64,000 nucleotides of DNA, taken from sequence record PP925839.1, one strand, 5' to 3'. This DNA is from Escherichia phage PinkRuby. The notes under the pieces were generated by a model. The model searched no databases. It saw nothing but the letters and a program-made list of their open reading frames with translations, and was not told where the DNA came from. Positions 61,743 through 62,655 of this stretch are shown in pieces; the first letter of the stretch is position 1; each line of letters starts with the position of its first letter. The translations under genes and the position numbers were made by a program.

Positions 61743-61847
61743 TTCTGTATTTACCCATTACCGCACTCAGGCTCGACCTTATTACAGGTTGGCGGGAATC
61801 CCTCATAGAATCATGAGGTCCAGCTTGTTCCCATATTTCTTATTTGC

Positions 61848-62321
61848 TTATTTGAATGATTTGACGTACTGAATAGAGCCTTTGCTATTCACGAAAGCGA
61901 TTTTACCATTTTTGTTATACATGGTAGCAGTACGCTGATAACCATAAGTTTGTTTACCAGATTGATAACCAACTAATGCGAAATTATCTTCGCCCATTTT
62001 ATTCTGCTTAGCGCGAATGCGTTCATGGCCGTGTGCCATAAGAACCTTAGCATCACCAGTTGCAATGGATCTACGAGTTTTTTCATCTTCAACTGTATTA
62101 ACAAAGTCGTCAAATGAATCAAATTTAGCATGAGATTTATTATACAGTTTTCCATCTACTGCATAATTATATCCCTGTACATCCATCTCAACTTCTGTAC
62201 CATCATCCAATACAGCAGTGATTTTTTGACCTTTTTTAAATTTCAAAAGATCAGTAAAAGATTCAGCAATAATTTGAGAATTAATAGCTGCTTCAGTAAT
62301 AAATTCTTGATATGTTTTCAT
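61848..62321 (-). CDS. internal protein with capsid targeting sequence
   Basis: 157 aa; N-terminus MKTYQEFITEA as in the T4 IP targeting sequence. Confidence 0.7.
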   Translation of the reverse strand: MKTYQEFITEAAINSQIIAESFTDLLKFKKGQKITAVLDDGTEVEMDVQGYNYAVDGKLYNKSHAKFDSFDDFVNTVEDEKTRRSIATGDAKVLMAHGHERIRAKQNKMGEDNFALVGYQSGKQTYGYQRTATMYNKNGKIAFVNSKGSIQYVKSFK

Positions 62322-62337
62322 ATGTTTCCTTTAATTT

Positions 62338-62655
62338 TTATGCTTTAGGAAAATTTTTAGAATATGCATCGTAAAGTTTATTTCCAATGCGGCGGAAAAC
62401 TCTAGCTGCAAAACGATTTTCTGGATTTTTAATCATAATTTGCATCATATAAGTGCCCGCGTCTGAAAGAGCTTCACTATAATATCCATTAATTTCTTTT
62501 AAAGTTCTGCGTTTTCCGCCAGGACCATCGACAGTAATTTTCCATTTACCAGTAGAAGTACGACTAGGTGGCTCAACTTCTTCAATCCAAATATAACCGC
62601 CTTCTACACGTTGTCCTGCGGCAGATTCTGCAATAAATTCTTTATACGTTTTCAT
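62338..62655 (-). CDS. internal protein with capsid targeting sequence
   Basis: 105 aa; N-terminus MKTYKEFIAESA. Confidence 0.7.
   Translation of the reverse strand: MKTYKEFIAESAAGQRVEGGYIWIEEVEPPSRTSTGKWKITVDGPGGKRRTLKEINGYYSEALSDAGTYMMQIMIKNPENRFAARVFRRIGNKLYDAYSKNFPKA

Follow-up and report, generated by a model that had tools for sequence, protein, structure and literature searches.

The interval between the genes e and vs.8 of T4-like phages holds genes for internal proteins (IPs), and in Escherichia phage PinkRuby (Tequatrovirus) two such genes stand beside an unusually GC-rich sequence; the question raised by this locus is whether the genes and the sequence belong together. We studied a 64,000-nucleotide stretch of this phage (PP925839.1), referred to as the window, in which the minus strand carries every gene at the locus. 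An initial annotation had described positions 61743–62655 as a rearranged IP locus with a structured or horizontally acquired leader. Our analysis points to two separate things at these coordinates, a reading to which we assign, on sequence grounds, a probability of about 0.72: ordinary IP cassettes (61848–62655) and a conserved pseudoknotted RNA element (61712–61836) that is not an IP leader. As far as the genome comparison tells, T4 and some 970 further phages carry the element without its being annotated as RNA.

Read along the coding strand, the GC-rich segment lies 3′ of the stop codon of the 157-aa IP gene, Ip4 (61848–61850), and 5′ of vs.8. With the last IP stop before it and vs.8 after it, the segment does not lead into the IP genes. 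Its composition was reported correctly: positions 61743–61847 have a GC content of 44.8%, in comparison with the window mean of 34.5%, and belong to the top 2.4% of 105-nt windows. The limit at 61743 tracks the start of a spurious open reading frame (ORF; ATG at 61742) and truncates the 3′ hairpin of the element (61715–61727); taken in full, the element at 61712–61836 has a GC content of 48% and falls in the top 0.3%. The segment aligns base for base with the T4 sequence beginning at the denV stop codon, the range that corresponds to the element in T4 being 64818–64942.

To study the segment across phages, we gathered 51 distinct copies of the element from IMG/VR, metagenomes, and GenBank phages. 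Within Tevenvirinae, the copies are of two types, type A found in Tequatrovirus (the window and T4) and type B in Mosig-, Jiaoda-, Kanagawa-, Gelderland-, and Dhakavirus, the helix P1 of type B having an additional inner hairpin. Since the thermodynamic signal and unaided structure prediction failed (see below), we drew the structure, eight nested helices and one pseudoknot, by hand from an alignment of 20 type-B sequences and then counted its pairs as a test. In this alignment, 93.2% of the 723 cells contained standard pairs, as compared with 20–45% when the 3′ partners were slid by 1–3 columns, and nine pairs changed on both sides, a number reached by 0 of 500 shuffles. With 37 sequences of both types, 93.6% of the cells were paired and 11 pairs showed double changes, the helix P0 being wholly swapped. 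Among the pairs that change (numbered by type-B columns) are the pseudoknot pairs 15–111 (CG, AU, and GC) and 16–110 (CG and GC), the P0 pair 9–56 (GC, CG, and AU), and the pair 65–98 closing the junction (helix P2′; UG, AU, UA, and CG). When a covariance model was trained only on type B, hence on non-Tequatrovirus sequences, it found positions 61712–61836 on the minus strand as the sole match in the 64 kb (80.2 bits, E ~1e-16, full-length alignment), and the same model retrieved all type-A copies, including that of T4, as well as rV5-like, metagenomic, and Vibrio copies.

Mapped onto the minus strand of the window, the element is ~125 nt long, its limits (61712–61836) being those of the covariance model. 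The 5′ domain at 61794–61832 consists of P0, the joining segment J0/1, and P1. P0 (GGGAA/TTCCC; 61828–61832 and 61794–61798) shows compensatory swaps across the types, AAAGG/CCTTT in one corresponding to GGGAA/TTCCC in the other, with further forms GGGAG/CTCCC (locus L026), AAAGC/GCTTT (L013), and AAAGA/TCTTT (L031). It encloses J0/1 (CAAGCTGGA, 61819–61827) and P1 (CCTCAT/ATGAGG with the loop GATTCT; 61813–61818 and 61801–61806), the latter being the 6-bp hairpin noticed at 61801–61818 by the initial annotation. The expected number of perfect 6-bp hairpins per 105 nt of the window is 0.36, and P1 alone is thus not significant; it is credible because of the compensatory changes in relatives, where we found CCTTAT/ATAAGG (L049), CCTCA-ATAC-TGAGG with a shorter loop (L026), CTTA/TAAG (L036), and a compensatory deletion (L020). 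The near-invariant core at 61755–61792 folds as a three-way junction with the junction sequence GGTAA and had one exact match in the window and none in 100 shuffles. It contains P2′ (CCA/TGG; 61790–61792 and 61755–61757), for which four closing-pair forms are seen, P2 (ACCT-GTAATA-AGGT, 61776–61789), and the P2b hairpin region (CGAGCCTGAGTGCGG, 61761–61775), where GC/GC is replaced by GTC/GAC in a Vibrio phage. The proposed pseudoknot joins CUG of J0/1 (61821–61823) to CAG at 61745–61747 and was assigned by position: type-B relatives show covariation (CCG/CGG, CAC/GTG, CGC/GCG, and AAACCG/CGGTTT), and as type A offers only 3 invariant bp, the model is weakest at the pseudoknot of the window. 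The 3′ module is the hairpin P4 (GCCA-TGGAA-TGGC, 61715–61727), a hairpin of the 5′ untranslated region found in relatives before vs.8 or before an inserted IP gene; 95–96% of its cells are paired, with one A–U to G–C swap (L035).

Several observations weigh against the reading of the segment as a structured RNA. The folding energy of the single sequence was no better than that of shuffles (z = −0.32), and unaided RNAalifold missed the model and gave inconsistent structures on both strands. The structure was drawn by eye on the sequences that were later counted, which inflates the paired percentage, and as many sequences are closely related, the independent compensatory events are few, ~10–15. 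Wobble pairs barely separate the strands, 93.6% of cells being paired in sense and 91.2% in antisense orientation, and since they are not decisive, the strand call rests on the orientation of the genes and the tRNAs. The invariant core shows no covariation in P2, and the pairing of P2b is supported by few variants. Expression as RNA from the minus strand and any function are what we infer from the sequences, a discrete RNA species being a possibility, and the position of the element directly upstream of vs.8 in nearly all Tevenvirinae still fits a cis-regulatory role.

Searches against known RNAs returned no relative of the element. With Rfam 15, the window had no match at the gathering score, and at E ≤ 10 the element and an rV5 copy gave only chance matches at the level of snoRNAs and miRNAs; the other loci gave only tRNAs and one group I intron, the intron (L058 3551–3854, 81 bits) belonging to a metagenomic contig of rV5-like type whose RNA element is ~3 kb away. 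ARAGORN found 0 tRNA or transfer-messenger RNA genes in the window and called the element a tRNA in no locus. A literature search on vs.8, Ip4, or a T4 RNA at this site gave nothing relevant, and large-scale catalogues of phage RNA candidates may mention the element.

The element is widespread. A 48-nt core query matched 968 phage records, among them T4, T2, T4-like phages of Yersinia, Klebsiella, Salmonella, and Citrobacter, rV5-like phages (Vequintavirus), and 22 Vibrio phage records; across the 968 records, ~45 nt of the core are near-invariant, and almost every listed record has no annotation over the element. Outside Tevenvirinae, the flanks of the core are unrelated in sequence and the architecture recurs. 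In rV5, P0 is GGGG/CCCC, P1 is CACAT/ATGTG, and the pseudoknot is CCAGCA/TGCTGG (TGTTGG in L039), and in the Vibrio phage the corresponding helices are GTACC/GGTAC, CTTAC/GTAAG, and GAAG/CTTC, with GTC/GAC as P2b. The rV5-like versions are longer, ~200 nt (L011 1900–2120; L047 4590–4800; L042; L058), and in them CCC(C)TTAGAGGGCTTGA(T/A)AGTGC modules recur and the terminal hairpins are GC-rich. In nine non-Tevenvirinae contigs, the element is on the tRNA strand: it lies between tRNA-Thr and tRNA-Gly in one (L045), ~50 nt after a tRNA in another (L060), and 0.5–0.6 kb upstream of the tRNA cluster (tRNA-Arg) in the seven loci of the rV5-like group where tRNAs are in view. The nearest tRNA is ~1.2 kb away in the Vibrio phage L061, and two loci (L042 and L056) have no tRNA in view. 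In one type (D), a sigma-70-like promoter (TTGAGT…TATACT) stands immediately upstream of the element and the promoter of the next gene directly downstream. The rV5 gene following the element (ORF74) showed no relation to vs.8.

The copies found in certain genomes show that the element is built of two modules. In Klebsiella phage UTI-K1, the order is e, an Ip4-like gene, an intact element (168.6 bits), an IPII-like gene, a hybrid degenerate element (65.7 bits), and vs.8. In L041 and L023, the intact element stands before the inserted IP gene and only the P4 module is found beside vs.8; among Jiaodaviruses, likewise, the intact copy precedes the inserted IP gene, the copy adjacent to vs.8 being degenerate or reduced to P4. 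Upstream of vs.8 in Mosigvirus MM02, an early-type promoter stands in place of the 5′ domain and P4 is kept. That promoter (L033 1451–1510) is near-identical to the denV promoter of the window, with two mismatches over 30 nt, which suggests transposition of a promoter cassette by recombination. Together, the copies in UTI-K1, L041, L023, and MM02 indicate a widespread 5′ domain and a 3′ hairpin, P4, that is specific to the T4 group and moves with the downstream gene. By these arrangements, the element also appears to be a site of IP cassette exchange, and its conserved sequence would serve as the right-hand homology border of the exchange. Two further records are of note. Upstream of an IP gene in L026 (2150–2280, minus strand), a second intergenic element, a variant, shares 5′ TAATAAAG and the 3′ hairpin GCCACGGAATGGC around another GC-rich middle, and may be a sister RNA module. 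The 288,685-bp record of Klebsiella phage AM_K4 (L012, PP355766.1) follows Jiaodavirus Mineola without a difference across the element and diverges abruptly inside P4 at ~2070; at twice the usual genome size, it may be a chimeric assembly.

Before the function of the element is considered, two readings without any RNA have to be weighed. Horizontal transfer of a GC-rich IP leader from a host would explain a GC content high for the genome, but the segment lies 3′ of the IP genes and occupies an orthologous site across Tevenvirinae, T4 and T2 included. As neither 5,426 complete E. coli genomes nor 185,579 bacterial and archaeal species (one genome each) gave a match, we conclude that it is not host DNA and regard such an origin as scarcely credible; of the structured or acquired leader first proposed, only the structure has held. 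An N-terminal extension of vs.8, the segment being coding, is very improbable as well. In its favor, the T4 annotation treats the homologous segment as the first 40 codons of vs.8, with the start inside the RNA element, and the window has an in-frame ATG at 61742, annotated likewise in phage HY01. The vs.8 starts are annotated inconsistently, the protein having 219 aa in T4 (NC_000866 64253–64912), 195 aa in HY01 (equal to the window ORF at 61155–61742), and 179 aa in phage teqsoen (ATG corresponding to 61694). We looked for a conserved frame at the N terminus and found none: the T4 and window extensions are in different frames, the T4 frame being closed in the window by a TAG to give a 33-aa ORF at 61705–61806 and the 195-aa ORF using another frame, and in relatives the frame is broken by stops after 2–3 codons and by indels of 1, 4, and 5 nt, the conserved blocks falling in different frames. 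A conserved micro-ORF within the element (MRDSRQPVIRSS…, MDNSCA…) was rejected for the same lack of frame conservation. The substitutions in the helices are compensatory and not synonymous, and the family profile (phrog_1488, 177 positions) begins at residue 19 of the 195-aa ORF, at MRTFL. By these comparisons, the segment is non-coding. As the profile begins at MRTFL, the true start of vs.8 in the window is probably the ATG at 61694 (61692–61694), preceded by a Shine–Dalgarno sequence from 61705; the gene at 61155–61694 on the minus strand then encodes a P-loop protein of 179 aa starting with MRTFLTGPY, in line with the unconserved frame upstream and with the form annotated in teqsoen.

Given an RNA, the mRNA would include it between the last IP gene and vs.8, and a cis-acting leader of vs.8, either a riboswitch or a protein-binding translational operator, is one role to consider. 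The element stands immediately 5′ of the ribosome-binding site (RBS) of vs.8 in Tequatro-, Mosig-, Kanagawa-, Gelderland-, and most Jiaodavirus genomes, its P4 ends 8–20 nt before the Shine–Dalgarno sequence, and aptamers typically have a junction of this kind, pseudoknotted and with unpaired nucleotides that do not vary. No ligand class follows from the structure and the invariant junction. We found neither a terminator nor an anti-Shine–Dalgarno platform that would make up an expression platform, the genes downstream varying among vs.8, IP genes, rV5 ORF74, and tRNAs. The core is present without a vs.8 homologue in rV5-like, Vibrio, and metagenomic phages, where the promoter of the next gene lies downstream of the element, and vs.8 of MM02 is driven by an inserted promoter without the 5′ domain. 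In the genomes with two copies, the intact one precedes an IP gene and that adjacent to vs.8 has decayed; an intact copy can thus stand away from vs.8, which speaks against a switch specific to this gene, and we consider such a leader unlikely. Less likely again is a self-cleaving ribozyme or RNA-processing signal that would split IP mRNAs from vs.8 and, elsewhere, help to mature tRNA-operon transcripts. The element is compact and pseudoknotted with a conserved core, begins at the upstream stop codon and ends before the next RBS, and in other phages lies within tRNA clusters or at most about 0.6 kb from them, the proximity of tRNA clusters being the niche of known phage ribozymes; on the other hand, it matched no ribozyme family of Rfam 15 even at E ≤ 10, and we identified no candidate cleavage site. 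Similarly improbable as the sole explanation is conservation at the DNA level, as a recombination joint or a regulatory cassette like the promoter-early stem-loop (PeSL), whose shuffling is documented in T4-type phages (PMC2839356). Copies flank an inserted IPII-like gene in UTI-K1, L041, and L023, hybrid A/B copies exist, and a promoter has taken the place of the 5′ half in MM02. Like PeSL (PMC2839356, PMC4122927), the element is a conserved intergenic module in a variable region, flanking shuffled orphan genes and present in copies on either side of an inserted gene; unlike PeSL, which consists of an early promoter and a terminator stem-loop, it has neither a promoter nor a terminator consensus within 61712–61836, is, with a pseudoknot and four helices, three to four times more complex, and has been conserved across phage families that are unrelated. 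The compensatory changes that keep the four helices and the pseudoknot paired would be superfluous for a patch of homology, and the core is conserved in phage families without IP cassettes. A role as a recombination joint is compatible with an RNA function and probably secondary to it.

Over a switch dedicated to vs.8, we favor an autonomous structured RNA domain. The 5′ domain, with P0, P1, the three-way junction with its ~45-nt core, and the pseudoknot, would form an autonomous functional module, one that either has a conserved binding partner or is released from the transcript by processing, and that is linked to tRNA operons in other phages. From the comparative evidence, such a domain, possibly related to tRNA, takes somewhat less than half of the probability that the element is a functional RNA at all. 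More specifically, and tentatively, the 5′ domain could represent a new functional class of phage RNA, independent of vs.8, that either interacts with or mimics tRNA (by docking to the elbow, or as a decoy of a tRNA-targeting host defense or processing enzyme) or acts as a self-cleaving ribozyme for polycistronic or tRNA-operon transcripts. Among known systems, T4 rnaC and rnaD (species 1 and 2) resemble the rV5-like, L045, and L060 copies as non-tRNA structured RNAs on the tRNA strand, within or beside tRNA operons; unlike these, the element shares no sequence similarity with them, and its T4-like copies are several kilobases from the tRNA cluster and inside an mRNA. With pseudoknotted aptamer and ribozyme folds, the element has in common a multi-helix junction wrapped by a pseudoknot and invariant unpaired nucleotides, without matching any of them in Rfam. 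Its two GUAAU-type loop or junction motifs may resemble the double T-loop modules by which RNase P, T-box leaders, and the L1 stalk of the ribosome dock to the elbow of tRNA; on account of these two motifs and of the association with tRNA operons, a tRNA-binding module is conceivable. Other possible resemblances, to RNase P CR-II, the 3′ end of 16S rRNA, 5S rRNA, the P4/P5 arm of the thiamine pyrophosphate (TPP) riboswitch, and the hatchet ribozyme, are not relied on.

Next to the element, the two IP genes are familiar. Both ORFs reported initially were confirmed and matched to IP families: the Ip4 gene (IP cassette 2; DUF7412) at 61848–62321 encodes 157 aa with the N terminus MKTYQEFITEA, and an Ip10-like gene (IP cassette 1; phrog_3966) at 62338–62655 encodes 105 aa and starts with MKTYKEFIAESA. 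Both proteins begin with a capsid targeting sequence (CTS), MKTYQEFITE|A in the former (codons 1–10, 62292–62321) and MKTYKEFIAE|S in the latter (codons 1–10, 62626–62655), which follow the pattern MKT(Y/F)xEF..E of T4 IPI, IPII, and IPIII, with M1, K2, T3, E6, and F7 invariant and ending in a prohead-protease site (L/I-x-E). The 157-aa protein matched Pfam PF24183 (DUF7412) over its full length (E = 6e-96) and phrog_3155, "internal virion protein" (E = 6e-102), and its family is annotated as Ip4 or ipIV in RB32, PP01, and wV7. At 90% identity, the family comprises 14 clusters, exclusively from T4-like enterobacterial phages, one of them 99% identical to the window protein. The 105-aa protein matched phrog_3966 (E = 2e-33), a PHROG labelled "unknown function," and is 69% identical to "Ip10 [Shigella phage SP18]"; a cluster 97% identical to it carries the UniRef name "IpII internal head protein," and a homologue is found after denV in a Kanagawavirus. 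There is essentially no difference between the window IPs and the Ip4/ipIV (RB32, wV7, PP01, HY01) and SP18 Ip10 families, and by these matches the two genes are ordinary members of known T4-type IP families for which nothing new is claimed.

When aligned with T4 IPI, IPII, and IPIII, both proteins show similarity confined to the CTS, the first ~11 residues. They share with them the CTS, a conserved RBS, small size, and a place in the variable interval around e and denV, and differ in having no similarity past ~11 residues and another order relative to denV. The two genes lie between denV and vs.8 and have a common cassette head of RBS and CTS coding sequence, a 48-nt direct repeat on the minus strand with 88% identity, whose copies (62287–62334 and 62621–62668) are 334 nt apart and bound the one cassette added in the window. 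Similarity to IPI* beyond the CTS was not found in sequence; the predicted Ip4 model (pLDDT 72) had no fold match in the Protein Data Bank (PDB) at E ≤ 0.001, the model of the 105-aa protein (pLDDT 47) was too poor for a fold search, and sequence searches against the PDB gave only weak matches at chance level. In T4, the CTS directs IPI–III to the prohead core, the prohead protease (gp21) cleaves them, and the mature proteins are injected with the DNA. By analogy, the CTS of the window proteins would target them to the prohead core, where the prohead protease would cut after Glu10, and the mature proteins would then enter the host with the DNA. The internal proteins are a diverse set of which only the CTS is conserved, and IPI* inhibits a GmrSD-type restriction enzyme (PMC3012670); an anti-defense role of the window IPs is a reasonable analogy with IPI*.

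Along the direction of transcription, the order in the window is e, denV, the 105-aa IP, the 157-aa IP, a non-coding gap, vs.8, vs.7, and vs.6/grcA, and in T4 e, ipIII, ipII, denV, and vs.8. The order thus differs from T4 as first described, and denV (endonuclease V; 62665–63081, identified by Pfam Pyr_excise and annotations) is 5′ of the IP cassettes, whereas in T4 it is 3′ of the IPs. The placement of the IP genes upstream of denV is true only in plus-strand coordinates, the genes being 3′ of denV in the direction of transcription. The rearrangement is, by the counts of records, routine cassette polymorphism. The locus matched 729 phage records with hundreds of Tequatrovirus genomes, the best being Escherichia phage JLBYU22 (97% identity); T4's own order is found in 33 records, the exact order of the window in 25, and the order e, denV, Ip4, and vs.8 in at least 170 (at 89% coverage). 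The last is that of HY01-type genomes, which lack the segment holding the 105-aa cassette, and both Ip4 and Ip10 cassettes after denV are the less common combination (the 25 records). IP-type ORFs starting with MKTY occur in other combinations around denV in Mosig-, Kanagawa-, Gelderland-, and Jiaodavirus. We propose that the several common orders of the e-to-vs.8 interval arise from gain, loss, and exchange of cassettes between conserved borders.

Some features of the neighboring genes are of separate interest. The gene e (63635–63141, minus strand) was placed by the ORF list and the annotation of phage teqsoen. Exact late-promoter motifs TATAAATA are found only upstream of e, at 63649–63669 (minus strand) in the window and at L002 7012–7032 in T4, and late promoters dedicated to the IP genes were thus rejected; for the IPs to be made late, transcription would have to read through from e or begin at late promoters that depart from the consensus. 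A promoter of the T4 early type (GTTTAC-N18-TAGTAT) is upstream of denV at 63107–63136 (minus strand). The P-loop of the vs.8 protein (61155–61694, minus strand) has the Walker A motif GGRQSGKST, which resembles the motif of terminase large subunits, and gave weak matches to Terminase_6N, AAA_14/AAA_30, and phrog_2 (terminase large subunit, E = 3e-6). The product of vs.6 (60460–60822, minus strand), known in T4, is an autonomous glycyl-radical cofactor of the GrcA/YfiD type with the motif RVSGYAV, and the GC content of 100-nt windows in its gene rises to 48%, close to that of the RNA element.

The e–vs.8 interval of T-even phages thus appears, by analogy with the T4 IPs, as an exchange site for cassettes of injected proteins that are candidates for anti-defense functions, and the conserved element explains the right-hand border of the shuffling. 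With the element recognized, the vs.8 start codon given in many genome records is corrected as well. T4, the best-studied phage, would contain a conserved pseudoknotted RNA of ~125 nt that is annotated there as protein, the N terminus of vs.8, and the core of this RNA is common, almost base for base, to unrelated phage families, in or near tRNA operons. If the element indeed binds a conserved partner of the host or the phage, it would pose a testable question in T4 and represent an orphan class of RNA.

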